Below, piece by piece: positions 25,933 through 54,245 of a stretch of DNA of 54,904 nucleotides (the stretch's first letter is position 1; each line of letters opens with the position of its first letter). Made by a program: the position numbers and the translations under genes. The notes under the pieces were generated by a model that saw only the letters and a program-made list of their open reading frames with translations, was not told where the DNA came from and did not search any database. Source of the DNA: a virus (Duplodnaviria; Caudoviricetes); the IMG/VR virus record IMGVR_UViG_3300036846_000162, positions 1 to 54,904 of that record. One strand, 5' to 3'.

Positions 25933-25950
25933 TTAGGGGGGGTTGATAGG
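25933..25950 (-). promoter_or_regulatory. Conserved 18-bp motif, copy 1 (putative phage RNAP promoter)
   Basis: + strand TTAGGGGGGGTTGATAGG, about 23 nt upstream of the nuclease start. Confidence 0.7.
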
Positions 25951-25965
25951 CTTTACTTCGGTGAC

Positions 25966-26160
25966 CTACAATGGTAGCATACGATTCTCATTTATCCAGT
26001 CTATCATTTTTTGTGCCTCTCTTAATATCCCATCTACAGTATCACAATTACGTGTCTTACTTACTATCTGTATTATCTTCCATCTAAAGTCAGCTCCTCC
26101 TACTTCTACTTTCAGAGGAGTCTTATGAAATTCTTCTAGCATCTTATCAAGAGCATCCAT
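25966..26160 (-). CDS. Hypothetical protein
   Basis: Packed - strand ORF. Confidence 0.55.
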   Translation of the reverse strand: MDALDKMLEEFHKTPLKVEVGGADFRWKIIQIVSKTRNCDTVDGILREAQKMIDWINENRMLPL

Positions 26161-26164
26161 AGCT

Positions 26165-26437
26165 TTAAGTTGTTATGTTTAATGTATCTAACATTTGCAG
26201 TAATCTGTTTCTCCTTTTTATTGCTTCCTCTTTTAACCTCTCTACTGTTGATGTCATTAATACTACCTGATTGTTATATGTATCAATCTTATCTTGTAAC
26301 CTTTGATTCTCTATCCTAAGACGTGTTGCTTCTACTTGTTGTTCCTTTAACTTGTTACGCATATTTTGAAGCGTAAATATAGCAGCTATAATGCTTACTG
26401 AATATAAGCATAATACTATTATTTGTCCTATTGTCAT
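26165..26437 (-). CDS. Membrane-anchored coiled-coil protein
   Basis: N-terminal TM helix followed by coiled coil; AAGGAGGT upstream. Confidence 0.6.
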   Translation of the reverse strand: MTIGQIIVLCLYSVSIIAAIFTLQNMRNKLKEQQVEATRLRIENQRLQDKIDTYNNQVVLMTSTVERLKEEAIKRRNRLLQMLDTLNITT

Positions 26438-26439
26438 AA

Positions 26440-26982
26440 TTAACCTCCTTCTTTAATACTGTTTAATCTTGCGAACTCTCCAAAAAATTCCTTAGCCTTA
26501 TCATTGTAAGCTATTGCTGCATCCTCCTCACTAGTGAATCTTCCTAAATTATAATTCTTGCCTTTATGCCTTACTTGAGCCTTCCATTTACTGTTTATGG
26601 TATCCCAACTTACACCCTTATACATAGAACTACCATCAGAATGTTTACTTGTATTAGCGTTATTTTGTAAGATTGTAGCTATTCTAAGATTTTCCCTTCT
26701 ATTATCCAATCCATCACAGTTTTTATGGTCTACTCTTATAGTGGGTTCTAGTAGTAGTCTTAATATCTGCCTATGCATCTTAACAATAGTAGGGTATCTG
26801 TTGGCTCTTTCTTCTTTAGTTGATCTTCTATGGGCATATAGCAAATTTGAGTTTGGATTACATATACACCATCTATACTTAGATAGCTCCTCATAGTCTT
26901 CATCATCTACTAGTATGCCTATCCTGTCTCTGTTTTTTATTGCTATTATCTCTTTCATACTACATAGTTTATAGATAATCAA
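26440..26982 (-). CDS. HNH endonuclease with AP2 DNA-binding domain (free-standing homing endonuclease)
   Basis: VDDEDY...MHRQI...VDHKNCDGLDNRRENLR (HNH); SMYKGVSW...KWKAQV...LGRF.SEEDAAIAYN...GEFARLN (AP2). Real start is probably MKEII. Confidence 0.9.
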   Translation of the reverse strand: MIIYKLCSMKEIIAIKNRDRIGILVDDEDYEELSKYRWCICNPNSNLLYAHRRSTKEERANRYPTIVKMHRQILRLLLEPTIRVDHKNCDGLDNRRENLRIATILQNNANTSKHSDGSSMYKGVSWDTINSKWKAQVRHKGKNYNLGRFTSEEDAAIAYNDKAKEFFGEFARLNSIKEGG

Positions 26983-27361
26983 AAATAGGCGGAGTCTTTA
27001 GTACTTTAATTATAGTACCAGGTTCTAACCTATTAATACGTGGTTTTCCAAAACAGGGGATGAACTCATATATACAGTCATCATTTAGCCAACCTTGCTT
27101 GACCATCTCATCAGCTATAGTTTCTGTGGGAGCTGTAATATCCCAGTAGTTGTCTATGTTTCTGATGAATGTAAAATGGATAAAGTATGGTCTTGGTAAG
27201 TCCTTTACTGCTTCTCTAAAAGAGTCTCTATGCTCAGCCCATGCCATCATACTAGCCCTCTGCCATTTCTTAATGGATGGTGAGGAAACTAAGTTCCTCC
27301 CAGTCCATACTTTACCATTCTTTAGAGAGGGTACATTCCCTGGTATAAACCATTGTCTCAT
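26969..27361 (-). CDS. RusA-like Holliday junction resolvase
   Basis: IPGNVPSLKN...WD...IAD...WLNDD pattern of the RusA family. Confidence 0.65.
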   Translation of the reverse strand: MRQWFIPGNVPSLKNGKVWTGRNLVSSPSIKKWQRASMMAWAEHRDSFREAVKDLPRPYFIHFTFIRNIDNYWDITAPTETIADEMVKQGWLNDDCIYEFIPCFGKPRINRLEPGTIIKVLKTPPIFDYL

Positions 27362-28137
27362 ATGATATGTTTTCTGTTACGTACAGTTATTTGTTCTTCT
27401 GCTGGTTTCTCATTAAGTTTCTCCATCTTCTGATGTATATCTGCTAACTTCCTACTTAGTCCATCTTTACTGTAAGATGCTAACGAATAGGGTAACTTCA
27501 AGTACCTAGTTACTACTCCAAAATCACATACCTCATATATAGGCTTCTTACAGTTGTGCAACTGTTCCTTTACATATCTAGTTATTGCATTGACATGCAT
27601 TATTCTATTAAGTAGTAGGCTATAGTCATAGGTCATTTCTCCTATTCTAAACTCAAATGTCTTTAGACCATTGAATTTGAGCCAACAATTAGTAGTTCCT
27701 ACAGTCCTATGATTATAGCTTCTTGTATATCCCCAGTTTTCTAATTCACTTAGTATATAGCTTTTCTCTCTTAAAGCCTCAACACATACCTGCTCAAAGC
27801 TAACATCAGTACAGTCTACATGATAATGTATTCCTGAACCCATATTCAGCTTGCAATTAACTCTTAACTGTCTAGATATAAGATATAAACATATGATTCC
27901 TCTTATTCCATTTGGTATTCTAAATCTCTGTTCATAGGCATCACATTGTACATCCATGATAAAAGGTATGCTAGTGAAGTTCTTTACATCATACATATCA
28001 CTTAGATGAGACTCTATCTCGAAACCAGTTGAATAGGGTATTAATCCATTGAGTAGGTCAAGTACCTCTCTTCTTTTTACTGTGGCTATAAGCAGGGGAT
28101 TCTCTAAGAACCCCTCTGCTTCTTTGTTAATCTCCAT
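27358..28137 (-). CDS. Putative amidoligase (COOH-NH2 ligase family)
   Basis: TGFEIE, GSGIHYHV and TFEFR motifs. Confidence 0.7.
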   Translation of the reverse strand: MEINKEAEGFLENPLLIATVKRREVLDLLNGLIPYSTGFEIESHLSDMYDVKNFTSIPFIMDVQCDAYEQRFRIPNGIRGIICLYLISRQLRVNCKLNMGSGIHYHVDCTDVSFEQVCVEALREKSYILSELENWGYTRSYNHRTVGTTNCWLKFNGLKTFEFRIGEMTYDYSLLLNRIMHVNAITRYVKEQLHNCKKPIYEVCDFGVVTRYLKLPYSLASYSKDGLSRKLADIHQKMEKLNEKPAEEQITVRNRKHII

Positions 28138-28148
28138 GGGCTTACATT

Positions 28149-28634
28149 TTAATGTTCTCCAGGTCTGCTGTAACCACTACTAACCGGCACTGCTCTTTGT
28201 TCCTTTTCTTCCACTCCTTTAAGCTTCTTAAGTAGAGCTTCTACTTCTGCTACTGTAAGATCCTCTGCTTTGATAGCTGCTTCAATATCACTGGCAACCA
28301 TCTTCCTTTCTTCTGCTGCTTTGGGTTCTTCTTTCTCTTTCTTCTTGGCGAGCTTCTTTAAACCTTTCTCCTGCATTTGGAGCTTGTCTTTCTCTTCTGC
28401 TTTCTTGGCAGCCTTAGGCGTTAGGATTTTGATAATCTGTTTCTTGGTAGCTTCGGAGTTCTTTAGATTGTAGGCAGCTACCTTCTGTTTAAGAGTTTCT
28501 ACAATCGTTTCATCTGTGATAGATGCTGATAGTGTTTCACCATCAATCTTCCCTATGAAGTTCTTCCCTACTTTCTTCAGGGAGATGCTGAATGGCTGTT
28601 TCGTAGCAGCCTTCTTCTGTGGCTTCTTGTCCAT
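28149..28634 (-). CDS. Lys/Glu-rich hypothetical protein
   Basis: Start reassigned to MDKKPQKK (A-rich leader) to reduce overlap with the upstream gene. Confidence 0.55.
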   Translation of the reverse strand: MDKKPQKKAATKQPFSISLKKVGKNFIGKIDGETLSASITDETIVETLKQKVAAYNLKNSEATKKQIIKILTPKAAKKAEEKDKLQMQEKGLKKLAKKKEKEEPKAAEERKMVASDIEAAIKAEDLTVAEVEALLKKLKGVEEKEQRAVPVSSGYSRPGEH

Positions 28635-33490: not shown

Positions 33491-33503
33491 TGCTGATTAA
33501 TTT

Positions 33504-33538: not shown

Positions 33539-33574
33539 CTAAGCCAACCTATTTAACTAAAACAAAAAACTATA

Positions 33575-34994: not shown

Positions 34995-35035
34995 AAAAAC
35001 TATTTTTTGTGGTTATTGAATAAAAATTTACATTG

Positions 35036-35067
35036 CAAATATAGCATAATCTATGCCTAATTCCAAA
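35036..35067 (-). promoter_or_regulatory. Bacteroidota primary sigma promoter
   Basis: - strand TTTG-N20-TATATTTG matches the -33 TTTG / -7 TAnnTTTG consensus. Confidence 0.75.
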
Positions 35068-35069
35068 TT

Positions 35070-37867: not shown

Positions 37868-39244
37868 TTACCATCCTGCTGACTCTGCCACTACTTCTTC
37901 CTGATCTTGTAACAACTTAGCCTTCCCTTCCATTACATCCTGGTACCTGATATATCTTATCCTCTTGAGATTAAGACCTCTTATAGCCCTATTAGCCCAT
38001 TCCAAATCTACAGTATCTTCATATGCTAGTACTACAATCTCACCTGTATGACCTCTATAATACCGCAATATCCTACCTATCCTTTGAATGAAATGCAACT
38101 TCTTACTGTTAAGCTGCACTATAAAGGCTATGTCAATCTTTCCCAAATTCACGCCCTCATTAAGAGCTTCTACACATGACATCTGTCCTCTATCCTTTTC
38201 TACCCATTCAGCTATATCCACACTACCATTATATCCTGACATGATAAACTCATACTCTGCTACCTTCTCTGGATTGGTCTTATCTTTTGGCAGTATTGTA
38301 GGCTTTGAGAAGAACCTCTTACCACAAGTCTCTATAGCCTGCCTCTTATTAGCACAGAATATAAGAGTCTTTAAATGTTCAGGAACCTTAGCCGTCAACA
38401 TGTTTATTGCTGCTCTGGTCTTAGACTTAGCCTTATAGATAAACTGCATCCTCTGTATCCTGGCAAATGGCTTATTACTTGTCTGTGTTACCCTTGTAAG
38501 ATATAGATACTTACTAAGCTCTGTCTGATAGAAATAAGCTCCTGCCTTACCACTCTTAATATACTTTTCAGTATCATTGAGAGGCAATGTCACGATAGTG
38601 ATATTATAAGGAGATGCAATACCCATCATTACAGCTTGATCTAAATCTAGAGTATATACTGTCTTTATTCCTAAAGACCTTAATAGGTCTCTCTTCTCAT
38701 AGTTTTCAGGCTCTGTTGCAGTTAATACCAGTATATCATGTACAGGATTCTTATGAAAGTACTCCATATGTGTAGGAGTAATATTATGAGCTTCATCCAG
38801 TATTGTAAGAGCCGGATTAGTACCTACTAGATTGTTGATACTGTCATAGCACTCTGCTGCCATATAGCTCCATGCTTCTTCTTTATTCCATTGCCTAAAC
38901 TCATCTCTCCAGCCTATATCTCTTAGCCTAATAGTAGGCACAATGATATTTACTTTTGATTCTACTGAATAGCCTGTTGCTATATCAATACCAATCTTAG
39001 TCTTACCAACTCCTGTAGCAATATATACTGCTCCTTTTCTTCCTGCTAATACCCATGCTTCTATTGCTTCCTGTTGAATCTTATTCTTAATCCTACTGGT
39101 TATAGTCAATTCTTCTTCATCCGTAGTTAGGTCATAGAGTTCTTCTCTGATCTTTCCTATCTTCTCCGTATGATATTTGATTGTCTCCCTTCCTTGTAGT
39201 ATTATAGATAGTTCCAACAGCAGCTTTTCTTTACTGCTCTTCAT
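37868..39244 (-). CDS. Superfamily 2 DEAH helicase (UvsW/SSL2-like)
   Basis: ATGVGKT, LDEAH, LTAT, LNEGVN, QRIGRILR. Confidence 0.9.
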   Translation of the reverse strand: MKSSKEKLLLELSIILQGRETIKYHTEKIGKIREELYDLTTDEEELTITSRIKNKIQQEAIEAWVLAGRKGAVYIATGVGKTKIGIDIATGYSVESKVNIIVPTIRLRDIGWRDEFRQWNKEEAWSYMAAECYDSINNLVGTNPALTILDEAHNITPTHMEYFHKNPVHDILVLTATEPENYEKRDLLRSLGIKTVYTLDLDQAVMMGIASPYNITIVTLPLNDTEKYIKSGKAGAYFYQTELSKYLYLTRVTQTSNKPFARIQRMQFIYKAKSKTRAAINMLTAKVPEHLKTLIFCANKRQAIETCGKRFFSKPTILPKDKTNPEKVAEYEFIMSGYNGSVDIAEWVEKDRGQMSCVEALNEGVNLGKIDIAFIVQLNSKKLHFIQRIGRILRYYRGHTGEIVVLAYEDTVDLEWANRAIRGLNLKRIRYIRYQDVMEGKAKLLQDQEEVVAESAGW

Positions 39245-39501: not shown

Positions 39502-39519
39502 TTAGGGGGGGTTGATAGG
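39502..39519 (-). promoter_or_regulatory. Conserved 18-bp motif, copy 2
   Basis: + strand TTAGGGGGGGTTGATAGG. Confidence 0.7.
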
Positions 39520-39811: not shown

Positions 39812-40008
39812 TGTTTTCTCCTTATTTTTATTTTGTTATTTAAAATTACCTAACCAAAGGTAGTTCCCTCCCATCTGGAAGCAGTATTAGTAGGAATTAC
39901 CTGAAATTCATCAGAACCAAACTACCTTGTACGGTTAGGTTTTGCATAATGAATCTACCTGTAGAAACAGGTGGACTCCACCCGAAACTCTAAAACAACT
40001 AAAAAGAT

Positions 40009-40182: not shown

Positions 40183-40199
40183 AGGTGTATATTTATTGA

Positions 40200-43087: not shown

Positions 43088-44413
43088 TTATTGTATGCCT
43101 TTTACGTTATTTAATATGACTAGGTCACTGGCTCTTGTTACTCCTGTGTACAGTAACCTCTGCTTATCACTCTCATCCCTACATAGGTTTATATCTCCTA
43201 TATTCATCACAGTAGACTTGTATGTACTACCCTGTGATTTATGTATGGTAATAGCGTGATTGTACTTAATGTCTGCAAACTGCTCTAAGAAGTAGTCTCT
43301 AGCATGATAATCCCAACCAAACTTAGCACAGTTCTCCTTTATGCTAGTAGATAGGTGCTTAAAGATAGCATCACTATGCTCATGTAATACCTTTACTGTA
43401 TCATTTATAACATAGTATTTCATCCTTATCCTATCTGTTGCCGTAATAGGCACACCGTCCTGAAAGATTGTATCATGTCTTGGAACATTGATATAACTTG
43501 TGATAATGGACAAATCTTCTACCTTAACTTCTTTGTTGGTATAATGTTCACCAAAAGGGGCATTAAATACGATAGTCTCCTCTTTCTCTATCCTCGCTGG
43601 TTTTCCATACCTCCTAGTTCTAACCGCTAGATTTATCTTGTCCACCACATTGTTAGTAAATGCAAGGTACTTTAGTGCATCAGTACCATTTACATCTGCA
43701 AGGTCGTCTATTATGACTGGCATATCATTGCTATACATATATCCTTTACCATCTATTAACCTTGGTGTGTTGAAGTATATCATATCTAAGTCATTAGACA
43801 AGTCTATTATAGGATTACCTGCCCCTTGTCTGATAATAGTCTTCAGCTTTACTTCAGGATAGTCCTTTACAAATACAGGACTGACCTTCTCCCCTACTGG
43901 TGGTAATTGCTTATCGTCACCTATGTAGAGTATAGGAAACTTCATTGCCTTGAGATAACCCTCTTGATACTCTTTTGCTTCAGGGTCTAACATATTACCT
44001 TCGATCTTACTCTCTAACATTGATGCCTCATCTATTACTGCAAACTTAGCTAAATCAAAGTCTTCTACCCTATCACCATAGAACTTGCCTCTTACGAAGC
44101 TATGCTGTCCACTCTGGCTATTGGTAATTCTCCTCATTCTGAGTGCACTGTGAATGGTCTTAAAAATGTAATTGCCATATACTTTAGACCTAAGTATAGC
44201 CAATGCTTTGTTTGTTGGTGCTGTAACAAATACCTGTCCATTATTATAATTGCGTAGTATTGCTGCTTCATGCTTAAAGTACTTTATAAGCTCATTAGAT
44301 AGATGAGTTTTACCAGTACCTGCAGAGCCTACTAATCTTACTCTTTTATGTCCTTCTTTGAATAGTCTTATGATTTCTCCATAAGCCCACTCTTGGTCAC
44401 CCATGAATGCCAT
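43088..44413 (-). CDS. Dda/RecD-like SF1B DNA helicase
   Basis: GSAGTGKT, TAPTNKA, IDEASM, GDDKQLPPV, HAITIHKSQGSTY, LYTGVTRAS. Confidence 0.92.
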   Translation of the reverse strand: MAFMGDQEWAYGEIIRLFKEGHKRVRLVGSAGTGKTHLSNELIKYFKHEAAILRNYNNGQVFVTAPTNKALAILRSKVYGNYIFKTIHSALRMRRITNSQSGQHSFVRGKFYGDRVEDFDLAKFAVIDEASMLESKIEGNMLDPEAKEYQEGYLKAMKFPILYIGDDKQLPPVGEKVSPVFVKDYPEVKLKTIIRQGAGNPIIDLSNDLDMIYFNTPRLIDGKGYMYSNDMPVIIDDLADVNGTDALKYLAFTNNVVDKINLAVRTRRYGKPARIEKEETIVFNAPFGEHYTNKEVKVEDLSIITSYINVPRHDTIFQDGVPITATDRIRMKYYVINDTVKVLHEHSDAIFKHLSTSIKENCAKFGWDYHARDYFLEQFADIKYNHAITIHKSQGSTYKSTVMNIGDINLCRDESDKQRLLYTGVTRASDLVILNNVKGIQ

Positions 44414-44433
44414 AGTTGTTGTATTTGTAGGTT

Positions 44434-44481
44434 AAAAAAAAAAAGAAGTAGCAAGCTATATTTCTATAACTTACTACTTCT
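44434..44481 (-). terminator. Intrinsic terminator
   Basis: AGAAGTAG/CTACTTCT stem with an A11 run. Confidence 0.7.
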
Positions 44482-44496
44482 ATTATAGACTACGGA

Positions 44497-45186
44497 TTAA
44501 ATAGTCTGTCCCATGAGCACACCTGCTCCTTCCATTTCCGCCTTGATCTTTGGTGTCTGATAGACATCACTCTTACCATAACGAAAATCTTCATCATTAC
44601 GGGCTACTCTGCTGAATCCGGTTCTTTTATACTGAGCATTCTTTTCTTTGTCCAGTATCAATTTACCTGCATTGCCGTTTGTATCACCGATACCATAACG
44701 TACTGCTTGTTTGTCAGCCAGTTCATCATATGTCTTAAGACCCCTGTTAATAGCATCCCACTGATTGTCATCAAATGTAGGGCTGTTACTGAGGATCTTA
44801 AAGATGATGCCAGTATTCTTGAATTTCTCGAATGCTGCCATTACCTCTGCATCTGGTGCACTTACCGGTACCAATATCCATGCAACTCTGGTCTCAACAC
44901 TTTCATACTTCCTCGGCTCTGCTGCTTTACCAAAATCTTCCAGCTCAAATATGCTGTCATTAAGGTTGCTTGTAATTCTAACACCTGAATATACAGCTAA
45001 AGTAGTTAACTTCTGCTTTACTTCCAAGGTCTTAGTTCCTGGTTTCTGATACTGATTGACGTAAATCCTGCTGAATATCAGTGGTGAACGTGTTACGGTA
45101 ACTTCTCTTGTTACCTGTGATTTTGCCTCTGTCTGAGTTTCCTGCTCGTCCAACAGAGTGTCTTGCGCTAATTTGGTAGTGTCCAT
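44497..45186 (-). CDS. Hypothetical protein
   Basis: 229-aa ORF, AAGGAG leader, own terminator. Confidence 0.7.
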   Translation of the reverse strand: MDTTKLAQDTLLDEQETQTEAKSQVTREVTVTRSPLIFSRIYVNQYQKPGTKTLEVKQKLTTLAVYSGVRITSNLNDSIFELEDFGKAAEPRKYESVETRVAWILVPVSAPDAEVMAAFEKFKNTGIIFKILSNSPTFDDNQWDAINRGLKTYDELADKQAVRYGIGDTNGNAGKLILDKEKNAQYKRTGFSRVARNDEDFRYGKSDVYQTPKIKAEMEGAGVLMGQTI

Positions 45187-45226
45187 TTTAGTTTTCTCCT
45201 TTGTTTATTGCTTTAATTAATATATA

Positions 45227-45538
45227 CTAGATGGGCTTTCTTTTATGCCCTATCCTAGTCTCTTCAATAGCCTTCTTTCTGGCTCGTAAAATAGCTTCTC
45301 TCTTGTGCTTTTTCTTTTGTGCTATTAACAGATGTTTAAATCTTCCTTTAGATGTATAGACTGCTAATCCTCTATCCACCTGTACCTGAGCTAACCCTTT
45401 TGGGACTCTTACGGCTAATCCTGCTTGTTGTAGAATAGCTCCGTTCTCATCCCTTACTTCCTTTGTGATGATGCTTACTAGCTTGTATCTATTCATAATT
45501 TTAGTGATTAAGCTGTCTCCCCAACGTAGCCTCTTCAT
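45227..45538 (-). CDS. Basic hypothetical protein
   Basis: AGGAGGTG upstream. Confidence 0.6.
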   Translation of the reverse strand: MKRLRWGDSLITKIMNRYKLVSIITKEVRDENGAILQQAGLAVRVPKGLAQVQVDRGLAVYTSKGRFKHLLIAQKKKHKREAILRARKKAIEETRIGHKRKPI

Positions 45539-45539
45539 G

Positions 45540-45698
45540 TTACACCTCCTCGCTCATTATCATCCCACTCAACTTTGACTGCATGTATCTTTCGTGCTTA
45601 TCTCTAAGCATCTTAATGTAGTCTGTTATCCACCTATTCTTCCTGATGATATTCAACATGTATAGATTATACATGATTGATGCTATTAGATTTTTCAT
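45540..45698 (-). CDS. Small hypothetical protein (52 aa, not in ORF track)
   Basis: MKNLIASIMYNLYMLNIIRKN...; starts about 29 nt after motif copy 3 and ends just before the next start. Confidence 0.55.
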   Translation of the reverse strand: MKNLIASIMYNLYMLNIIRKNRWITDYIKMLRDKHERYMQSKLSGMIMSEEV

Positions 45699-45726
45699 AT
45701 TGATGTATTTTAGATTTGCTCCTTAA

Positions 45727-45744
45727 TAAGGGGGGGTTGATAGG
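45727..45744 (-). promoter_or_regulatory. Conserved 18-bp motif, copy 3
   Basis: + strand TAAGGGGGGGTTGATAGG. Confidence 0.7.
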
Positions 45745-45832
45745 ATATGCCTCACTGACCCTCGTAAAACAGAATACCTGTATAGACATACAGGTATTTG
45801 GAATTGACTATTTCAATATAAACAGAAAGACA

Positions 45833-46129
45833 TCATTGCTTGTTGTTGTCCATGATAAGTTCTCTAGCCATTACCCATGGGAAGAATGCTCTAGTACAAT
45901 GCTCCACTGTATCACAACATGCCTCATGTTCGTAATGTCTTACTCCTTCACTGTCCTCTGGTACCCTGATATTCTTATTGGCTATCTTAATGATGTATGT
46001 TCTAATACTATTTAACAAAGCTCTCTCTGCTACTAGTTTAGTATACATTTCACCTGTAGTTATGATCTCTATTTCTGAGACCACTCTATGCTCTGCTCCT
46101 ACTGTCTTTTCTATTAGTATATAAGGCAT
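45833..46129 (-). CDS. Hypothetical protein
   Basis: 98-aa - strand ORF; a TACCTTTA -7-like element lies just upstream. Confidence 0.5.
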   Translation of the reverse strand: MPYILIEKTVGAEHRVVSEIEIITTGEMYTKLVAERALLNSIRTYIIKIANKNIRVPEDSEGVRHYEHEACCDTVEHCTRAFFPWVMARELIMDNNKQ

Positions 46130-46379
46130 GGTATTATTGTAAAGGTAAATAAATTTTTAAATAAAAACATGAAAGTGAGGATATTTCTATCCTCTCTCTT
46201 TCACTTGCCTTCCATCTATGTTCGTTGTGCCATGTAAGACGAGGCTACTTAACATAATGTAAATTATTCTTTCTTTCCTCGCCTTGAAATCCCAAAGTAG
46301 GGGATAGCCATAGTAACCCTCAATAGGTGTAGGCTATCCCTCTTTACTTTGAGTAGGTGTATGACAACACTAAGTTTAG

Positions 46380-46658
46380 TTAGAACGGTAGTTCATCACC
46401 AGTCCAGGTTGTAGTACCTGGAGTTTTAATAGGAGTCTCATCAGAATGATGTACAGGAGTCTCTACAAAGTCCTCTGGCATTTCAGTAAAGCCTACTTGT
46501 GGTAGGAATGGCTCTGTGTAGTCTATCCATTCAAGCATAGCTTTAGCACAGGCTTCCAGGTACAGTTGTTTGACTTCATCTTTAGTCCTATAGCTAGTAC
46601 CAGTTTCTAATGCTGCGAAGAAATGCTCTTTAATCTTGTTAAATAATGATTGGTTCAT
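46380..46658 (-). CDS. Small protein with SSB-like acidic C-terminal tail (GDELPF)
   Basis: 92-aa ORF downstream of motif copy 4. Confidence 0.6.
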   Translation of the reverse strand: MNQSLFNKIKEHFFAALETGTSYRTKDEVKQLYLEACAKAMLEWIDYTEPFLPQVGFTEMPEDFVETPVHHSDETPIKTPGTTTWTGDELPF

Positions 46659-46803
46659 AGTATATTGTTTTAGTATGGTTTATAAAGTGGGCATGAACTC
46701 AAGATAAAGAGATACGTTCCACTTCAAAGCGTACCTATATTTCTTTTGATTTTCTAACGAGAGGCTTTAAGCCTATTACCATGCATGATATGTTGCACCA
46801 TGA

Positions 46804-46821
46804 TTAGGGGGGGTTGATAGG
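46804..46821 (-). promoter_or_regulatory. Conserved 18-bp motif, copy 4
   Basis: + strand TTAGGGGGGGTTGATAGG. Confidence 0.7.
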
Positions 46822-46944
46822 AACCGCTAGTGATGGCTTTACGGTTTATTTAAACCGAGGGTTGTTTGTAGTAGATGTACATTGAAGGCTAAAATATACA
46901 TACAACATAAAGTTAGAACGTTTAAAAATATTTTTTGTTAAAGA

Positions 46945-46996
46945 TTTGGAAAAAGCTATTTCCTGAACTATCTTGCAATAGAAGTTCTTTGAAATA
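46945..46996 (+). promoter_or_regulatory. Bacteroidota-like sigma promoter followed by a boxA-like element
   Basis: TTTG-N20-TATCTTGC (imperfect TAnnTTTG), then GAAGTTCTTTGAAATA. Confidence 0.5.
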
Positions 46997-47727
46997 GACT
47001 AAACGTAGATATGGAGGTTCTAATATCCCTTTACATGAATATGTAGAGATGAACATATTAAAACCATAAAGATCAGTAATTACCAGTATATACTAGTAAA
47101 GACAGATGAACTCAAAAGAAATATATATCCGCTTTGATAGAACTAAACTATATCTCTTAGCTATTTTAGACATAAAGCACGACTCCTGCGCCCATCTTTA
47201 GCCCGAAAGGGGGTTTCTATGGATTGCGAGAGGAGAGAAAGCTGAATAAGTTTGCAACTGCTACCTAATACGGTAAGCTAAAGCAGTACTAATAACCTTC
47301 ATCGGTTGAGAGCCACTACCTAAGACTAGGACCTGGACTTATAGTCATACTTAGAGATGGTAGGTGAAGAAGCTGGCAGACAAATAGGCTGGAAAGCTTC
47401 ATTATAATAACCACCTTATCTGAAGGTAATAAGATAGGGTTAGGGTAGGGGAAACAAGGACACTGGATGAGAGGCTGCAAGGCAGCTTCTTAAGAAACCT
47501 TGATTTCCTTGTATCTCTTGTATAATCTCAATATGTATGCGGGTTCAGCGGGTTCTTTGCCTCAAATCCTCGCAAATAGCTTCTAATTGAAATACAGATA
47601 GTCAAATTCAGTGTTTTACGGCTTACCCTTCTCATTTTGGGTAATAGGTGAACTAAATAGGAGTAATAAGTTTTCTAACTGACCACTCTTTTAGCAATTA
47701 CAAGGACTATATCCATAGTCCTTTCTT
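46980..47727 (+). ncRNA. Candidate large structured non-coding RNA (family unassigned)
   Basis: No ORF >=60 aa; nested helices, GNRA-type loops and G-U pairs favouring + sense; promoter upstream and terminator-like hairpin AAGGACTAT/ATAGTCCTT at 47702-47723. Confidence 0.55.
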
Positions 47728-47808
47728 ATAAACTCATTTGTGGTATTCCTTTGTTCTCCTTCTTTTATTTGTCTTTTTTTGCTAGTAGTAGGGTACTAAA
47801 ACAGTACC

Positions 47809-48300
47809 CTATTTTATTGCATTTAATTGTGCATCACTTCCATGCAGTTCTAATGCTTTATTATTGTATGCTATTGCAGCTTCTACTTCTGAATTAAACA
47901 TACCTAGATAATGATACTTTTTATTAAAGTGTATTTGAGCTATCCATTTATTACCTGACTTATACACTCCTCTATAAATAGAGCTAGTTCCATCTCTTTT
48001 AGCTCTATTTATTTTATTCTGTGATGAAGTAGCTATTCTAAGATTACTCTTTTGATTGTTTAAGCCGTCTCTATCTATATGATCTACTTCTTCTGTAGAG
48101 TCAATAACTCTCATGATCTGTCTATGCATTCTAATCCTTGAAGGATAACCTATTTTTACTTCCTCTTCTGTAGCTACTCTTATTGCATATACATTATCAT
48201 TGAATCTTGTTAAGTACCATATGGACTGCTCTAGTTCTATATAATCCTCATCGTCTACTATCACTATTCCTCTTCTATTAGCTAATTCTATCTCTTTCAT
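47809..48300 (-). CDS. HNH endonuclease with AP2 domain (paralog of 26440-26982)
   Basis: VDDEDY, MHRQI, VDHIDRDGLNNQKSNLR, SIYRGVY..KWIAQI..LGMFNSEVEAAIAYN. Confidence 0.9.
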   Translation of the reverse strand: MKEIELANRRGIVIVDDEDYIELEQSIWYLTRFNDNVYAIRVATEEEVKIGYPSRIRMHRQIMRVIDSTEEVDHIDRDGLNNQKSNLRIATSSQNKINRAKRDGTSSIYRGVYKSGNKWIAQIHFNKKYHYLGMFNSEVEAAIAYNNKALELHGSDAQLNAIK

Positions 48301-48318
48301 AATTTTTACTTTAGTAAG

Positions 48319-48346
48319 AAAGGCACCCTTTAACAGGTGCCTTTTT
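48319..48346. terminator. Hairpin terminator, possibly bidirectional
   Basis: AAAGGCACC/GGTGCCTTT stem with flanking A/T runs. Confidence 0.6.
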
Positions 48347-48370
48347 GCTATGGATATATGACTGACAGAA

Positions 48371-48541
48371 CTACTTGTTCTTGCTGAAGGCTGCTAATAC
48401 TAATCCTCCTACTATCAATGCTAATCCTCCTACTACTATGAAAGCTATTGTCTTAGCCGCTTTCTCTGCTACTTCTGTGTTCCCTACTACTAATGATACT
48501 ATTACTACTACCACTAATACGAACATTGTCAATCTAATCAT
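48371..48541 (-). CDS. Small two-TM membrane protein (56 aa, not in ORF track)
   Basis: MIRLTMFVLVVVVIVSLVVGNTEVAEKAAKTIAFIVVGGLALIVGGLVLAAFSKNK. Confidence 0.6.
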   Translation of the reverse strand: MIRLTMFVLVVVVIVSLVVGNTEVAEKAAKTIAFIVVGGLALIVGGLVLAAFSKNK

Positions 48542-48557
48542 TACTGCTTATTTTTGG

Positions 48558-49241
48558 TTATAAATGAACTTGTGTCTTGAACTCCGGTCTTATTCGCATA
48601 TCAGGTGTAACCCAGTCTCTTAAACCTATCCTACCATCCACCTTTACTAATACACCACTCTTTTTTCCTTCCTCTGATGATTTACAGTTGGATGCCCAAC
48701 AGTTATTAATGATTCCCCATCTGATATAACCTGGTCGCCACTCTCTTCCTAACTCTTTAAACTTAGCCTCAACATCATAGGTATCTAGTACCTTTTCAAA
48801 TAGGTCTTCTGGCTTAATGAATTTCTTCTCGATATCCAATATCTCTGCTGCATGTTCTGTCCACTGTACTCTACCCTCAGCTTTAGGATTACCTCCATGA
48901 GTTAATTTCTTCTTCTCTCTCGGCTTCATATCATTATGTGACTCCGCTCTTAATATTCTCATACCCTTTTCCATAGGTATGCCATGCTTCACTTTGCTAT
49001 ACACTTCTAACATTAACTTATCTGCTGCTACTCTATCTACTAGCATATCGTGGTCTTTCTTAAGAGTTAAATATGCCTCATAATAGTCCTTTAATGTAGG
49101 AGCTAATTCTGAGATCTTTTTCATGTTATCGTTAATCCTTGTTTGAGCCTCTTCAATCAGATAGGCTGATTGAGAGTCTGTAAGAGTCTTTATTTTTGAC
49201 TCTTGTGGGGGTAATAATAACCCATTTGTTTTCTGTTGCAT
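48558..49241 (-). CDS. Hypothetical protein (coiled coil plus possible winged helix)
   Basis: 227-aa ORF. Confidence 0.6.
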   Translation of the reverse strand: MQQKTNGLLLPPQESKIKTLTDSQSAYLIEEAQTRINDNMKKISELAPTLKDYYEAYLTLKKDHDMLVDRVAADKLMLEVYSKVKHGIPMEKGMRILRAESHNDMKPREKKKLTHGGNPKAEGRVQWTEHAAEILDIEKKFIKPEDLFEKVLDTYDVEAKFKELGREWRPGYIRWGIINNCWASNCKSSEEGKKSGVLVKVDGRIGLRDWVTPDMRIRPEFKTQVHL

Positions 49242-49258
49242 ATAGTCCTTATTTTAAT

Positions 49259-49480
49259 TTACTTTGTAGGCTTACTATATATGAAGTATTTATCTGTGTG
49301 ATACAAATATACAGTATCATTCTGTCTTATTGCTATCATTTTGATAAATGAATCAGTAGGTGCTCTATCCAAATCTGCAGGATAGTCAATAAATATAGTA
49401 CGCTGCTTATTCCTAAAGCCTGCTGCTACTATTGTTACTGCTATTAGTCCTAATGCTATTACTAATGTTGTCTTTCTCAT
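49259..49480 (-). CDS. Small secreted/membrane protein
   Basis: Signal-like N-terminus; downstream of motif copy 5. Confidence 0.6.
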   Translation of the reverse strand: MRKTTLVIALGLIAVTIVAAGFRNKQRTIFIDYPADLDRAPTDSFIKMIAIRQNDTVYLYHTDKYFIYSKPTK

Positions 49481-49520
49481 TTTCTTTGTTTGTTGGTTTG
49501 TATGTTATTGTGTTCCTTGA

Positions 49521-49538
49521 TTAGGGGGGGTTGACAGG
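49521..49538 (-). promoter_or_regulatory. Conserved 18-bp motif, copy 5
   Basis: + strand TTAGGGGGGGTTGACAGG. Confidence 0.7.
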
Positions 49539-49643
49539 ATATGCTCTCAGGGTGGCAAATATTGAGGGGCAGAGAACTACCCCTCGTAATTGTGTCTAAG
49601 AATGGAATTTCCATCTTAACAGAATATGCCAACAAAAAAGAAC

Positions 49644-50198
49644 TTATGCTGCTATTTCTAATGGATTTATCCTTACTATCTCTTTGCCTATACTCTCTGC
49701 ATACCTTATACAGTTGGCTGTACCTCCGCCTGTACCATCCCATACTGCTATAAGCCTATCACAGTTATTGACCATCCACTCATTACGCTTTTGCATTTTA
49801 TGACCACTGAACTCTGTTCTAGGCTCTGATAAGAACTTACCTACATTGATATCCTCAAATACCTTGCCAGTATCTGTGCATACTATCTTACTTGCTAACT
49901 TTAACAAGCTGTAGTACTCATCTATACTGCTTTGTACCCATCTATTCTCCTGTCCTCTAAAAGGTACTGCTGCTATAAATGGTATGTGTAACTCTACAGC
50001 TATTCTTGCAAATAGTGTATCTATACCTAAAGCCATGCCGGTAATAAGACGTAGTTCTTCATTCTTTTCCATACATTCTACTGCATATATTTCCACTATG
50101 CTCTTTATCTCTTCCTTAATAGCTATTATTAATGGGCTAATTAGGTTATAGTCATTACCTAACTTATTAGGACGGTGTCCTGTGATTGCGATCTTCAT
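49644..50198 (-). CDS. SLOG superfamily protein, YspA/DUF1273-like
   Basis: MKIAITGHRP, ITGMALGID, AVPF, RNEWMV...AVWDG.GGGTANC. Confidence 0.85.
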   Translation of the reverse strand: MKIAITGHRPNKLGNDYNLISPLIIAIKEEIKSIVEIYAVECMEKNEELRLITGMALGIDTLFARIAVELHIPFIAAVPFRGQENRWVQSSIDEYYSLLKLASKIVCTDTGKVFEDINVGKFLSEPRTEFSGHKMQKRNEWMVNNCDRLIAVWDGTGGGTANCIRYAESIGKEIVRINPLEIAA

Positions 50199-50230
50199 AT
50201 ATCTGTTTATATTGGTTACAAAATAAATTT

Positions 50231-50857
50231 CAATGTATATAAGCGCATCTCCACTGCTTTGCTGTAAGGGTGTCTTACATCAGTCAGAGTATATACATCG
50301 GGAAATACTCGCCACTACCCTTAGCAGGAGGCGACAGTATCTATCCCATTAACATAGGGTGCTAACTGCCTGTTTATATAGTAACCCTAACCATATTTAT
50401 CAGGACTTGTTTGTGCTCTTTATTCCTTAGCATTAGTTGTAGCCACCTATTCAGTATGTTGACCTGACTAGTTAAGACTTCTTTGCAACAGCTACAACTT
50501 TATGCTTTGGAAACTATCTACCATGCCAGTACATGTTACAGAGGTTCTTTTAATCACTCTCAGAGTGCCCTCATATAGACAATAGTAAAAGGATGGGGTG
50601 CATTGCTCATAACCTAACCCCGTTATGTACTACCCCACCCTAATAAGTATAACCAGTAGATTGTTATATCATGTTTTCTTCCATACTCATGAGGTACAGA
50701 TTGTTTCTTGTTTTCTTCCACTGGTTAATGCGGTTAGTAACTGGTCTTGTGGTTAGCTAATGATGTTGCTATAGCCAAACGTGTGCATACGATAGTTCTC
50801 TCCTCAACATCTGGGTTTTCCTACCATGCGTTCATCTCCAGAGTTTCCAGTTACTAA
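50231..50857 (-). ncRNA. Candidate structured RNA / tandem hairpin array
   Basis: ORF-free tract tiled by about 8 consecutive long imperfect stem-loops; + strand A-C mismatches convert to G-U pairs on the - strand. Confidence 0.5.
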
Positions 50858-50862
50858 TAAGT

Positions 50863-51189
50863 TTAAGATACTCCTTCATCTTCTTCTGGTATACCTGGAA
50901 ATGGTGGTACGAGTGGGTCAATTCCTCCACCATACACATCATTGTACAGGCTTTGTATATCAGTGGTTAGCTGATTAGCTCTGTCTGTCATCTCTTTAGC
51001 ATAGTCATGACTGGCATCCTGAAACTTAAGGGCTGCTGCTTTTACTTCAGGATATACTTCAGCATAATCATTTGCTGCATCTACTACAGCACCTTTATAG
51101 GTATCTGTGTAAGTACCTGCATCTGTCCTGAATCCATCCATCAGATCTTTTAGTCCATCTGTGAACTTCTGTGCTTGGTCTAGTGACAT
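50863..51189 (-). CDS. Acidic helical hypothetical protein
   Basis: 108 aa, Asp/Glu-rich, Pro-rich tail. Confidence 0.65.
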   Translation of the reverse strand: MSLDQAQKFTDGLKDLMDGFRTDAGTYTDTYKGAVVDAANDYAEVYPEVKAAALKFQDASHDYAKEMTDRANQLTTDIQSLYNDVYGGGIDPLVPPFPGIPEEDEGVS

Positions 51190-51224
51190 ATAGTTAATTT
51201 TAAATTGTGAGCTACAAAGATAAG

Positions 51225-51515
51225 CTATCTTTGGCTTGCAACAAATTTATTTATAGTATCATTGTCAATGAGTATCCAATCTCCGTTTCTTATACCCCAG
51301 GTTATCTTCTCACCTGCTCTGGCTCTTTGTGCAAATCTGCTTGTCTTGGTCTTATTCTGCTCCATAAACTTGATTACTTCATCTCCATCCTTATAGAATG
51401 TAGACCTACAGCCATTAGCTCCTGTTGTTATGTTGAGCTGCTGCTTATTGACTGTGAGTGAAGTTACTGATGCATCATGTAATGCATTGTGGATTGTGAT
51501 ATATTCCTGTTTCAT
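51225..51515 (-). CDS. Hypothetical protein
   Basis: ATGA-coupled ORF. Confidence 0.6.
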   Translation of the reverse strand: MKQEYITIHNALHDASVTSLTVNKQQLNITTGANGCRSTFYKDGDEVIKFMEQNKTKTSRFAQRARAGEKITWGIRNGDWILIDNDTINKFVASQR

Positions 51516-51751
51516 ATTGTTGTTTTTAGTTTTATTACTCTGAATCCATATAAGTATCTACTATTAGGCTGTTTAATCAGTGCATCTATATAGCTACTTC
51601 TTCCTTTTTTATCTGTATAATCTAAGCCTATTTTTGCTACTTCTATATCTCCTCTCATTATGCCTAGCTTCCTCTTAACTCTAGCCCTTTTAACTGTTAT
51701 AGTATCACCTACTTTCATTGGTCTGGTAGTACTAGGTTTATAGTGAAACAT
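51512..51751 (-). CDS. Small basic hypothetical protein
   Basis: About 26 nt downstream of motif copy 6. Confidence 0.6.
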   Translation of the reverse strand: MFHYKPSTTRPMKVGDTITVKRARVKRKLGIMRGDIEVAKIGLDYTDKKGRSSYIDALIKQPNSRYLYGFRVIKLKTTI

Positions 51752-51776
51752 ATAAATACTTTTAATTGTTCCATAA

Positions 51777-51794
51777 TGAGGGGGGGTTGATAGG
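51777..51794 (-). promoter_or_regulatory. Conserved 18-bp motif, copy 6
   Basis: + strand TGAGGGGGGGTTGATAGG. Confidence 0.7.
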
Positions 51795-51842
51795 TATTGC
51801 TAGTTGTAATGCAATAGCAGTTTTACCTGCTATTGCTATTTA

Positions 51843-52139
51843 CTACTGCTCACCTACTCTCTTGGCTAATGCCTCACCTTCCTCTGCTACTTTATCAACA
51901 AACAATCTTGTTTCTACAAACTCCATAGATATATCTACAAGTTTGCCTATGGTATCGGCTCTTTCCAATTCATCTACTAACTGTTCTCTGATAGTACCTA
52001 AAGTGGCACTAGATAATGAATTAAGAGCTACCTTAATAAGCCTGTCATAGAAGTTCTGTTCAACCTCTACTATTTGGGTTCCTTTCTGTTGACCCATTGC
52101 TTCGCTTAATGCTGCATGTAATGTTGTGTTGCTGGACAT
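51843..52139 (-). CDS. Hypothetical protein
   Basis: 98-aa helical ORF. Confidence 0.6.
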   Translation of the reverse strand: MSSNTTLHAALSEAMGQQKGTQIVEVEQNFYDRLIKVALNSLSSATLGTIREQLVDELERADTIGKLVDISMEFVETRLFVDKVAEEGEALAKRVGEQ

Positions 52140-52168
52140 ACTGTTGTTTTATTTGTTTAAACGGTTAT

Positions 52169-52612
52169 TTAATTTTGTTTACTGCCATCACTACAGATAG
52201 CATCAAAGATATAGCTTCCAATGCTCTCAGGTATTACATCTGCATACACAACATAATCGCTGTAATCATCTGAATTGATTATATTACCCTTAGAATCTCT
52301 TACTGCCATAGCCCTAATGCCTATTGTTTGATCACTGCATTTAATTGAGTACTTTATTAGGTGTATTACATTGTAGTATATCCTACCTTTATGGACATAC
52401 TTAGATTCCAGTTCTTTAAACCAGCAGTCTTTGGTCTCTCCATTGTCTATGACTCCGCCATCCTGCATATAGTACTTATCTGCACCATCTAAAGTCTGTG
52501 TTACAGCAGTCCATCCATCACCTGGTTCTCTGTCGGCTGTCCTTGTTTGAGCCTGTATCGTAGTGCTATACGCTAATAGTACTGCTACTATTAAAATGAT
52601 TGCTCTTTTCAT
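52169..52612 (-). CDS. Secreted protein, surface-adhesin E-like fold
   Basis: Signal peptide; YSIKC...VIPESIG...AIC pattern. Confidence 0.55.
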   Translation of the reverse strand: MKRAIILIVAVLLAYSTTIQAQTRTADREPGDGWTAVTQTLDGADKYYMQDGGVIDNGETKDCWFKELESKYVHKGRIYYNVIHLIKYSIKCSDQTIGIRAMAVRDSKGNIINSDDYSDYVVYADVIPESIGSYIFDAICSDGSKQN

Positions 52613-52615
52613 TGT

Positions 52616-52801
52616 TTATATTTTATAGTGAATGTATACTGTGTACCTGTCCTCATCTACTGTGCTAATAGCGTGAGTATAAGAGATGCTGATAATCTCA
52701 AGGCTACGCATATGCTTTATTTGCATTGCATCTAACCAATCATTGATATATTCTTGCAACTCTCTTAAACTCACACTATTCATTAGTTCTACCTTGTTCA
52801 T
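52616..52801 (-). CDS. Small hypothetical protein
   Basis: ATGA-coupled; LQEYINDWL pattern. Confidence 0.55.
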   Translation of the reverse strand: MNKVELMNSVSLRELQEYINDWLDAMQIKHMRSLEIISISYTHAISTVDEDRYTVYIHYKI

Positions 52802-53091
52802 AGATTATCTCTTATTATTGCCTCTGTAATAGAGTCTTTAGAGAATGTTCCCTTCTTAGGCATAGGAAATACTTCTACAAGCCTTTCTTCTGTCCTAAGA
52901 TATAGACTGTCATTATCTACATCTATTTGATAGTCACCTAATAGGCTATCCCAATGGTTATCTACATCTTCAACCTTATCACCTTCACACTCCATAGTAT
53001 TGGTGAGCTTGTTAACTTGTACTGATAGTGTAGCTGATGTAATGGTTAATGCTACTACTAATACTGATAATACTACTAATACCGCTTTCAT
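52798..53091 (-). CDS. Membrane-anchored/secreted hypothetical protein
   Basis: Start reassigned to MKAVLVVLSVLVVALT (signal-like). Confidence 0.6.
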   Translation of the reverse strand: MKAVLVVLSVLVVALTITSATLSVQVNKLTNTMECEGDKVEDVDNHWDSLLGDYQIDVDNDSLYLRTEERLVEVFPMPKKGTFSKDSITEAIIRDNL

Positions 53092-53176
53092 TATGTTTAT
53101 TTTGTTGGTTACTGTGTAAACACCTACCAAAGCCCCTACTACCGAGAATACGGATAGTGAGGCTTGGTGATTAGTG

Positions 53177-53252
53177 TGCATTGTTGTTCACCTTATGCTA
53201 ATGAACACTGTTTCAGCCAGTGTCAGACTGCATTGTTGTTGCCCTTATGCTA
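53177..53252. repeat. 24-bp direct repeat pair, period 52
   Basis: TGCATTGTTGTTCACCTTATGCTA (53177-53200) vs TGCATTGTTGTTGCCCTTATGCTA (53229-53252), 22/24 identical. Confidence 0.8.
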
Positions 53253-53452
53253 TGCCCACTGTGATGATACATCGCATCACTCCGGCTCATACTCAGAGAT
53301 TGTGGTTGTTGCCTCTAGTATGCTGACTAACCTAAGTATTACAATACTCCACTTACCTACGATGAGAGGTGCACTTCATCTATAAGTTTTAAAACGCTTC
53401 TCTGCAAGTAATACATTAGGTCTTATTAGTCAGTTTTGGTTGCTGCCCAAAA

Positions 53453-53470
53453 TAAGGGGGGGTTGAAAGG
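53453..53470 (-). promoter_or_regulatory. Conserved 18-bp motif, copy 7
   Basis: + strand TAAGGGGGGGTTGAAAGG. Confidence 0.7.
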
Positions 53471-53529
53471 ATGTGCTAATATCAAATAGTAATATGATTG
53501 TTACATCATACTACTAAGCGATAGAACTA

Positions 53530-53793
53530 TTAATCAACCTTTAAATACTTTTTATAAGGTCTGTTAGTGGACTTGGAAACTGTCCATACATATAACTTAC
53601 CTTTTAAGGTCTTGTAAACAGGTAATGATTTACCGTTGATATCATTGAACTTGTAGGTCGTAGTTGAATCCCAAGTTGGTCTGTTTTCAACGATAGTATT
53701 ACCAACTAACTTATATTTGTTGCTTGTTGGTGTTTGTGCTGATGATATAATGGCTATTGTTAATGCCAATAATAATAAGATAGTTAATTTCAT
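53530..53793 (-). CDS. Small secreted protein
   Basis: Signal peptide MKLTILLLLALTIAIISSAQ. Confidence 0.65.
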   Translation of the reverse strand: MKLTILLLLALTIAIISSAQTPTSNKYKLVGNTIVENRPTWDSTTTYKFNDINGKSLPVYKTLKGKLYVWTVSKSTNRPYKKYLKVD

Positions 53794-53833
53794 GTTGTTT
53801 GTCGCTTTTATATATTGTGATAATAAAGATAGT

Positions 53834-53869
53834 AAAAAACACTGGTAGTAATCCCTTACTACCAGTGTT
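53834..53869 (-). terminator. Intrinsic terminator
   Basis: Perfect 14-bp stem AACACTGGTAGTAA/TTACTACCAGTGTT with A-run. Confidence 0.75.
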
Positions 53870-53912
53870 GAAGATCGTGCTGTAAACCAAGACTGTAAAC
53901 GTCTATAGTCCT

Positions 53913-54155
53913 CTACAAAGAGAACTTCACGTCCAGTGGTTTCACATTCACTATACAGCCGTCAGTGAACTTATCTTCTTCGTACATATACCTAACAGGT
54001 AATGCTGGATTGAGATCCTGCTGTACTTTAGAGGTTCCTTTAGCATGAATAGCAAATGTAGTACCCTTTGCAGGGTTACTTACAACGTCAATCTTATCTA
54101 TGCCTAACTCAGCTTTAAACTGGTCAAGCGTGATAAATTTCATCTGTTGTGTCAT
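53913..54155 (-). CDS. Small hypothetical protein (paralog of 54411-54656)
   Basis: Start reassigned to MTQQMKF by alignment with its paralog. Confidence 0.7.
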   Translation of the reverse strand: MTQQMKFITLDQFKAELGIDKIDVVSNPAKGTTFAIHAKGTSKVQQDLNPALPVRYMYEEDKFTDGCIVNVKPLDVKFSL

Positions 54156-54227
54156 ACATCTGATATTTATAAACCCATGATTCGCTACTCTGTATCTATA
54201 CACAGTAACTAGCAATATCGCTCTAAA

Positions 54228-54245
54228 TTAGGGGGGGTTGAAAGG
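54228..54245 (-). promoter_or_regulatory. Conserved 18-bp motif, copy 8
   Basis: + strand TTAGGGGGGGTTGAAAGG. Confidence 0.7.

Follow-up and report, generated by a model that had tools for sequence, protein, structure and literature searches.

A repeated motif with a run of seven C as a candidate phage-specific promoter in the early and replication arm of an uncultured crAss-like phage related to FpV4

What is the role of an 18-nt motif that recurs eight times, always in the same orientation, between the genes of one arm of a tailed phage genome? The question is raised by IMG/VR record IMGVR_UViG_3300036846_000162 (Duplodnaviria; Caudoviricetes), which was analysed in its entirety and is referred to here as the window (54,904 nt, ~57% of the estimated genome). 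An earlier note, made from the DNA letters alone, had proposed that this motif, characterized by a run of seven C (C7), is the early promoter of an RNA polymerase carried in the virion, and had named a recombination site for the shuffling of gene cassettes as the alternative. Comparison with related genomes suggests that the motif is very probably a phage-specific promoter. The whole statement, that it is an early promoter read by an injected virion polymerase, has about an even chance of being correct.

The genes of the window switch strand near 17.6 kb. The + strand carries two giant open reading frames (ORFs; 133-12675 and 12675-17597), while the - strand, followed from 54.9 kb down to 17.5 kb, holds ~68 ORFs, among which genes for a rIIA-like protein, a family A DNA polymerase, helicases, a primase, a Sak4-like annealing protein, an exonuclease VIII-like protein and HNH endonucleases. 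The motif TDAGGGGGGGTTGAHAGG was found at positions 25933, 39502, 45727, 46804, 49521, 51777, 53453 and 54228, in all eight cases on the + strand, and no match appeared in 100 dinucleotide-preserving shuffles of the window. Its core AGGGGGGGTTGA occurs eight times in forward and never in reverse orientation in the whole record. A weight matrix built from the copies scored these eight sites at 34-40 bits, the runner-up reaching 16.7 bits. According to a simple gene call, intergenic DNA makes up only 5,237 of the 37,504 nt (14%) of the - strand arm, and all eight copies lie in it, occupying 8 of the 26 gaps; the sole ORF overlapping the copy at 49521 is one of 88 aa that itself overlaps an upstream gene of 184 aa. 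Every copy is located outside coding sequence, upstream of early or replication genes and co-oriented with them. The positions, the single orientation and the intergenic placement described in the earlier note were reproduced exactly, and neither copies in both orientations nor copies inside genes, which it had named as evidence that would speak against its reading, occur in the record. The motif had also been described as absent from the + strand genes. Indeed, the core is present at the eight sites only, but this absence is uninformative because that part of the window consists of the two giant ORFs without intergenic space.

The copies, numbered by position and all read on the - strand, stand at the following places. 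Copy 1 (25933..25950; gene-strand reading CCTATCAACCCCCCCTAA) precedes the exonuclease VIII-like gene (24669-25910), at 23 nt from its ATG, and takes up most of the gap of 55 nt. Copy 2 (39502..39519) begins 1 nt past the stop codon of ORF 39521-39811 and lies 41 nt before a 76-aa ORF (39231-39461), the first of the helicase block. Copy 3 (45727..45744), 29 nt before a 52-aa ORF (45540-45698), is the head of a unit of which the last gene is gp68-like (44497-45186). Copy 4 (46804..46821) is found 146 nt before a 92-aa ORF (46380-46658), at the lower-coordinate end of an ORF-free stretch of 1,150 nt. Copy 5 (49521..49538; CCTGTCAACCCCCCCTAA) and copy 6 (51777..51794) precede ORFs of 73 aa (49259-49480) and 79 aa (51512-51751) by 41 and 26 nt, respectively. 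Copy 7 (53453..53470) is followed by an ORF-free leader of 272 nt and a 127-aa ORF (52798-53181), and copy 8 (54228..54245) by 73 nt and the ATG of an 80-aa ORF (53913-54155). The distance to the next ATG is therefore 23-41 nt for five of the eight copies, as noted before, one of these five heading only the 52-aa ORF, and the reported rise in density towards the window end is seen in the six copies within the final 9.2 kb. Directly upstream of copy 8 three weak, co-oriented look-alikes on the - strand (54271-54296, 54303-54328 and 54333-54358; 16.7, 10.3 and 9.5 bits) form a tandem cluster with it at 54221-54358. Another weak look-alike, GCCTGGCAACCCACCTTAGC (54692..54717, - strand; 11.1 bits), precedes an 81-aa ORF (54411-54656), a paralogue of 53913-54155. 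This pair, with 46% identity, is the only exception to the finding that the genes behind the copies are mutually unrelated, and the motif is therefore no passenger of gene duplication.

Alignment of the eight copies on the gene strand yielded RGC-N5-CCTnTCAACCCCCCCTwAT-N3-GGA, with a contiguous block of 16 nt in which 15 positions are invariant among the copies. None of the eight copies folded better than shuffled sequences (free energies 0 to -2.8 kcal/mol), and the run of seven C has no pairing partner, confirming the previous statement that it is not a hairpin. The consensus of the primary sigma factor of Bacteroidota comprises a -33 TTTG and a -7 TAnnTTTG element. A TAnnTTTG box was present within 60 nt on either side of none of the eight copies, in agreement with the lack of resemblance to the host -33/-7 sequences claimed earlier. 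A sigma-70 style promoter scan found 55 sites where 68.7 were expected from shuffles, thus remaining below expectation. Strong terminator-like hairpins occur at most 60 nt upstream of four of the eight copies (z -3.3 to -5.5), all on the - strand: a classical one that ends in a T-rich tail, 28 nt ahead of copy 3 (45773..45798; z -3.43), and others upstream of copy 5 (49564..49585; z -3.26), copy 6 (51811..51836; z -5.52) and copy 7 (53487..53516; z -4.33). No Rfam family reached its gathering score in the window, and only terminator-like chance matches were obtained at E<=1 in 44400-54904.

The promoter reading is supported above all, as far as comparison of genomes can tell, by a sister motif that heads the same arm in relatives. 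Among cultured phages the nearest are those of the FpV4 type (Flavobacterium psychrophilum), which share ~30% identity with the window over the part of the giant ORF that matches phi14:2 gp66 (see below). Gene order is the same throughout in the window and FpV4, and no megablast match was found between the window DNA and isolated phages. In FpV4 the motif reads TCAAAACCCTCACTTATT (gene strand) and is present at 379, 262, 3, 87794 and 83696, five co-oriented copies at the head of the equivalent arm, which score 32-34 bits in a genome scan where the next site has 15.5 bits. A search with a neighbouring conserved protein as marker yielded 23 IMG/VR loci. The scan of the genome and its relatives that had been suggested as a check showed the eight window sites to stand alone in their record and the sister motif to be present in 13 of the 23 loci, with the consensus CAAAACCCTCACTwAT in FpV4 and 12 metagenomic relatives. 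It occurs there at 38 sites, representing 34 distinct 54-mers and ~7 lineages and not independent of each other since several strains are near-identical; the gene strand carries all 38, and no ORF of >=100 aa on either strand contains any of them. The marker protein of the motif-bearing lineages is 52-60% identical to that of FpV4, and that of the window 38%. In eight of the ten loci without the sister motif, <2.4 kb of sequence precedes the marker gene. The remaining two, L036 and L049 (43% identity), gave no match at <=3 changes in their upstream sequence, and the L036 genome carries variants of the sister motif with 1-2 mismatches at its opposite end. In complete relatives, copies with 0-1 mismatch are all on one strand and clustered at the early end, and the structural arm has none.

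One orthologous site could be aligned for eight loci. Upstream, the hairpins and T runs vary between loci. Conservation begins at the motif itself (TCAAAACCCTCACT-n-ATTT: 14 invariant columns, one variable A/T, then ATTT) and continues in the leader and ORF downstream. The window motif is connected to the sister motif by copy 8. This copy and FpV4 copy 3-20 head the same small gene (FpV4 gp75; tblastn 5e-8), and the near-palindrome AGCGATATTGCTA (54210..54222, - strand) follows the C-rich run at an identical distance of 8 nt in both genomes, with identical sequence. In this register the C7 run lies on CCCTCAC and 13 of 20 bases are identical. Judged from these matches, copy 8 with its downstream gene is orthologous to the motif-gp75 pair of FpV4, and the C7 run would be the counterpart, in the lineage of the window, of CCCTCAC in CAAAACCCTCACTwAT. 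The gene concerned belongs to a family of early proteins of ~80-90 aa (phrog_15744), with two tandem paralogues in the window and four in relative L034, where each of the four (4223-5942) stands 28-30 nt behind a motif copy.

A scan of IMG/VR for the exact C7 form gave 15 single matches and no contig with several copies. A metagenome scan gave at least 117 single matches, and among the matches listed none was similar to the window by blastn. The sister motif occurs in bacterial genomes, among the 120 matches listed, only as single copies scattered across many phyla.

An element that is asymmetric, nearly invariant within each genome, co-oriented with the genes and placed with a terminator-like hairpin on one side and a gene start on the other has the traits expected of a promoter, as have its retention before orthologous genes across deep divergence and the onset of conservation at the motif. 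In the mechanism proposed here the 18-mer would be the core of a promoter of ~33 nt heading eight transcription units in the arm of early and replication genes, with the intrinsic-terminator-like hairpins upstream separating the units. A polymerase that ignores the host -33/-7 code would bind the asymmetric element as duplex DNA and open the T/A-rich stretch directly after the C run. Transcription would start at purines 8-10 nt downstream of the C run, a position suggested by the conserved G/A positions, and leaders of ~15-35 nt would result before most genes. Concerted change of the motif within each genome is what would be expected if its reader is encoded by the phage itself. A phage-made reader is proposed because the motif lies off the host code and because it differs in a concerted way between genomes, with C7 in the window and CCCTCAC elsewhere.

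The candidate for such a reader is the giant virion protein encoded by the + strand ORF at 133..12675 (4,180 aa from ATG, its frame being open from base 1). The ORF matches a family of 'virion structural protein', and its C-terminal third is homologous to the virion RNA polymerase of crAss-like phages, with the catalytic DFDVD encoded by bases 8878-8892. Residues ~2,425-2,920 match gp66 of phi14:2, a crAss-like phage (tblastn 2e-19, BLASTP 4e-25), and BLASTP aligned DFDVD on the catalytic DFDID of gp66 (1361-1365). A tblastn match was also obtained to the 'putative RNAP catalytic subunit' of crAss002. This ORF is indeed a homologue of the crAss-type polymerase. Pfam detected no family in either giant ORF, and phmmer against PDB sequences, with the 4,180-aa protein whole or in two parts, found nothing meaningful; the latter search is insensitive here, since the phi14:2 polymerase, detected by BLASTP, escaped it too. 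The other giant ORF (1,640 aa) showed no similarity to the compared part of phi14:2 gp65 (best E 0.84), and is, from its position alone, a candidate polymerase partner. No sigma factor and no second polymerase was recognised among the 40 window ORFs scanned, and an Atlas look-up for a hidden polymerase yielded only leads to polyvalent-protein domains.

Gp66 of phi14:2 was reported to be injected and to transcribe the early class of genes when rifampicin was present. The three temporal classes of this phage generally correspond to its replicative, gene-expression and capsid modules (10.1101/2020.03.07.982082). The window resembles the phi14:2 system in its homologous polymerase, in its giant virion block facing the replication arm and in the kind of genes served. 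Because the giant virion protein is the only recognisable polymerase and its phi14:2 homologue transcribes the early class, the motif is interpreted as the early promoter of the injected polymerase, the most likely reader being the giant virion RNA polymerase of the two-barrel crAss type.

Several observations weigh against this interpretation. For the early transcripts of phi14:2 the authors reported no common upstream motif (10.1101/2020.03.07.982082). The sister motif is absent from the phi14:2 genome (100,418 bp), with one match at two mismatches, in contrast to the sharp, clade-wide motif described here; the injected polymerase may therefore manage without any promoter sequence. In FpV4-like phages only the first few kb of the arm carry the motif, and the replication genes are without a copy. 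The sister motif resembles promoters of single-subunit polymerases of the T7 group, a class of enzyme different from the one encoded. The 38 sites in relatives count for less than their number, given the near-identical strains among them. Furthermore, host-type TAnnTTTG boxes are present on the gene strand in three motif-free gaps (34995-35069, 39812-40199 and 51190-51224), with a full TTTG-N20-TAnnTTTG at 35036-35067. These gaps contain possible host-polymerase promoters, judging by their boxes, and the host polymerase may therefore act on the same arm as well. The reading given in the earlier note is supported in part: position, orientation, upstream hairpins, conservation and one orthologous motif-gene pair argue for a promoter, and the note as a whole stands only partly.

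The best surviving of the rival explanations, itself unlikely, assigns the promoter to the host RNA polymerase, which would be redirected by a specificity factor made by the phage or by an alternative one of the host. The length of the element (~26-33 nt) is compatible with a sigma-type site of two blocks, the many small early ORFs without known family could include such a factor, and the phi14:2 polymerase was described as having no sequence-specific start (10.1101/2020.03.07.982082). However, the invariant part forms a single uninterrupted block of 16 nt and is not divided in two by a free spacer, the -7 box is missing at all eight copies, no sigma-like family was found in the ORFs scanned, and the bacterial matches listed are single and spread over many phyla. 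In addition, the FpV4 copies at 379, 262 and 3 are the first elements of the arm, and a factor made from the arm would therefore be unable to serve them at the start of infection.

It has also been considered that the motif is not itself a promoter, serving instead as the binding site of a phage regulator or as a signal at the RNA level in 5' leaders, which is distinctly improbable. The motif is close to start codons, would be within the leader if transcription began upstream, and is followed by a near-palindrome in the one orthologous pair. Yet the asymmetric element without self-pairing is unlike typical dimer operators, and the motif comes after the terminator-like hairpins, not before them. 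Conservation begins at the motif, with variable sequence upstream, and therefore fits a transcript start better than an internal signal.

The resemblance to promoters of the T7 group raises the possibility of a reader of another kind. The sister motif shares a run of 12 nt, AACCCTCACTAA, with the consensus of 14 annotated T3 promoters (NC_003298.1), a run length reached in 33 of 200,000 composition-preserving shuffles. The sequence AAAACCCTCACT, also part of the sister motif, is found in promoters listed for T7-like polymerases of the Pseudomonas phages Henninger and PPpW-4 (PMC11475235). The architecture is alike (A-rich, C-rich specificity part, CACT, A/T-rich, purine), and promoters of T3 and gh-1-like phages are likewise ~20-25 nt long, asymmetric, near-invariant per genome, oriented with the genes and often located right after terminators. 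An unrecognised T7-like single-subunit RNA polymerase, hidden in a giant virion protein or encoded in the missing 43% of the genome, might thus read the promoter. Such an enzyme is very improbable. A six-frame search with PF00940, the family of T7-type polymerases, gave nothing at E<=10 in the window, FpV4 and three relatives of 99-100% completeness (0 of 5 records), although it detected the T3 RNA polymerase (RNAP; 1.7e-110), N4 RNAPII (9.6e-15) and, despite its great divergence, the N4 virion polymerase (0.0075) as positive controls, and tblastn with the T3 RNAP reached no better than E 0.76. Unlike the sister motif, the C7 motif of the window is a poor match to the T3 consensus (11 of 18 identities ungapped, longest run 5). 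The first conserved G lies farther from CACT than in T3. The T3 likeness is unexplained and may reflect chance, convergence or a hidden reader. It is conceivable, and quite unlikely, that the two-barrel polymerase injected by crAss-like phages, with or without the giant protein next to it, recognises a duplex promoter with a core near that of T3 and gh-1. Two unrelated polymerase classes would then share a code by convergence or module transfer, and C7 would represent a retuning specific to the lineage.

Strain variation bears on the alternative named in the earlier note. The DNA of 44905-54904 was found in three soil-metagenome DNA runs only, and in no RNA run. The contigs of these runs are >=99% alike where compared and show no differences inside the copies; the unchanged copies therefore carry little power. 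Variant contigs of run X2 differ from the window in three respects. The HNH gene 47809-48300 is missing by a clean skip of 529 nt (joint 47782-48312), the 79-aa ORF behind copy 6 (51512-51751) is replaced by 27 nt (joint 51771, 6 nt from the copy), and within the hairpin that lies upstream of copy 3, 61 nt stand in place of 12 nt (joint 45758, 14 nt from the copy). A recombination site for cassette shuffling, or a strand-specific nick or replication site, is as a main role the least likely of all: two of the three joints lie 6-14 nt from a copy, one variant has a small gene directly behind a copy that the other lacks, and copies and look-alikes form the tandem cluster at 54221-54358, but the third joint is the presence or absence of an HNH endonuclease gene, the motif holds fixed positions ahead of orthologous genes in lineages with 52-60% protein identity, and nick or origin sites would not be expected to be tied so strictly to gene orientation and gene starts. 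Repeated promoters are known to turn into recombination points as a by-product, and the joint positions therefore do not compete with the promoter reading. The alternative thus receives slight support from the two joints, which can be read as a side effect of promoters. Repeated promoters as borders of exchangeable units, a by-product of their promoter role, would fit these variants. In T4-type phages promoter-plus-stem-loop cassettes, with promoters used by the host polymerase, flank variable early genes. Here, too, units of terminator hairpin and early promoter border small variable genes, one of which was gained or lost at a copy; we know of no sequence similarity between the T4-type cassettes and the motif.

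Other systems in which phage polymerases read their own promoters differ from the proposed one in the element or in the enzyme. The T7 group is set apart by its polymerase, since no T7-like polymerase gene was found in FpV4 and three complete relatives. The early promoters of coliphage N4 are DNA hairpins. Few to several copies of them head early genes and are read by a particle-carried polymerase, and the tandem copies at the head of the FpV4 arm form an N4-like arrangement. The window copies, however, do not form hairpins and the N4 enzyme belongs to a different polymerase class. In the Thermus phage P23-45, conserved motifs define the promoters of phage two-barrel polymerases, one of which is virion-carried, and relatives bearing the polymerase keep the motif. 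Its motifs, one AT-rich and one GC-rich, are unrelated in sequence to the one described here, its polymerases are distant and belong to another phage family, and its promoters were mapped experimentally (10.1101/2022.12.01.518664).

Promoters of phage polymerases are a known kind of element; in the literature searched none has been described for an injected polymerase of the crAss type. The most abundant phages of the human gut are among the Crassvirales, which all carry a giant polymerase in the particle. To our knowledge the start signal on the DNA for this polymerase is undefined, phi14:2 being the only member studied. Literature on FpV4, crAss-like and F. psychrophilum phage promoters, searched also with the motif strings, does not describe the motif, within a scope of main articles; supplements, including the phi14:2 promoter files, might list related motifs. 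New here would be the C7 form, its probable descent from a clade-wide motif of cultured phages and the likeness to T3 and gh-1 promoters. A sharp motif, conserved in the clade and heading the early arm, offers a concrete template for in vitro work. Its sister version in cultured FpV4-type phages of Flavobacterium psychrophilum makes the start signal of an injected polymerase directly testable, and in uncultured relatives the motif may serve as a practical marker of early transcription units. Further versions (CAACACCCwCACT, AAAAGCCTCACT and CAATACCCTCACT) were seen in L037 (31-600) and G003 (90611-91979), and provide material for a study of co-variation between motif and polymerase.

Some features of the arm itself deserve mention. 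Two stretches in the early arm are free of ORFs and of Rfam families, 46659-47808 (1,150 nt), with a GC skew unlike that of the remaining arm, and 50199-50862 (664 nt). Both could encode non-coding RNAs. Long intergenic regions that are highly transcribed have been reported for the early arm of phi14:2 (10.1101/2020.03.07.982082). The HNH gene 47809-48300 behaves as a mobile insertion, and a second HNH gene is present at 26440-26982. The family A DNA polymerase of the window (40623-42545) found one distant locus only and had no tblastn match in FpV4 at 1e-4. It is closest (~46%) to that of Pseudomonas phage PA11-type podoviruses, and the equivalent at the same position in FpV4 is 75159-77270; from these comparisons the two DNA polymerases look like a non-orthologous replacement. 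Finally, a 7.7-kb contig of run X1 shows 20 differences in the last 120 nt of the window (54781-54904) and extends ~6.6 kb beyond its end, which may be an assembly break between strains and not the end of the genome.

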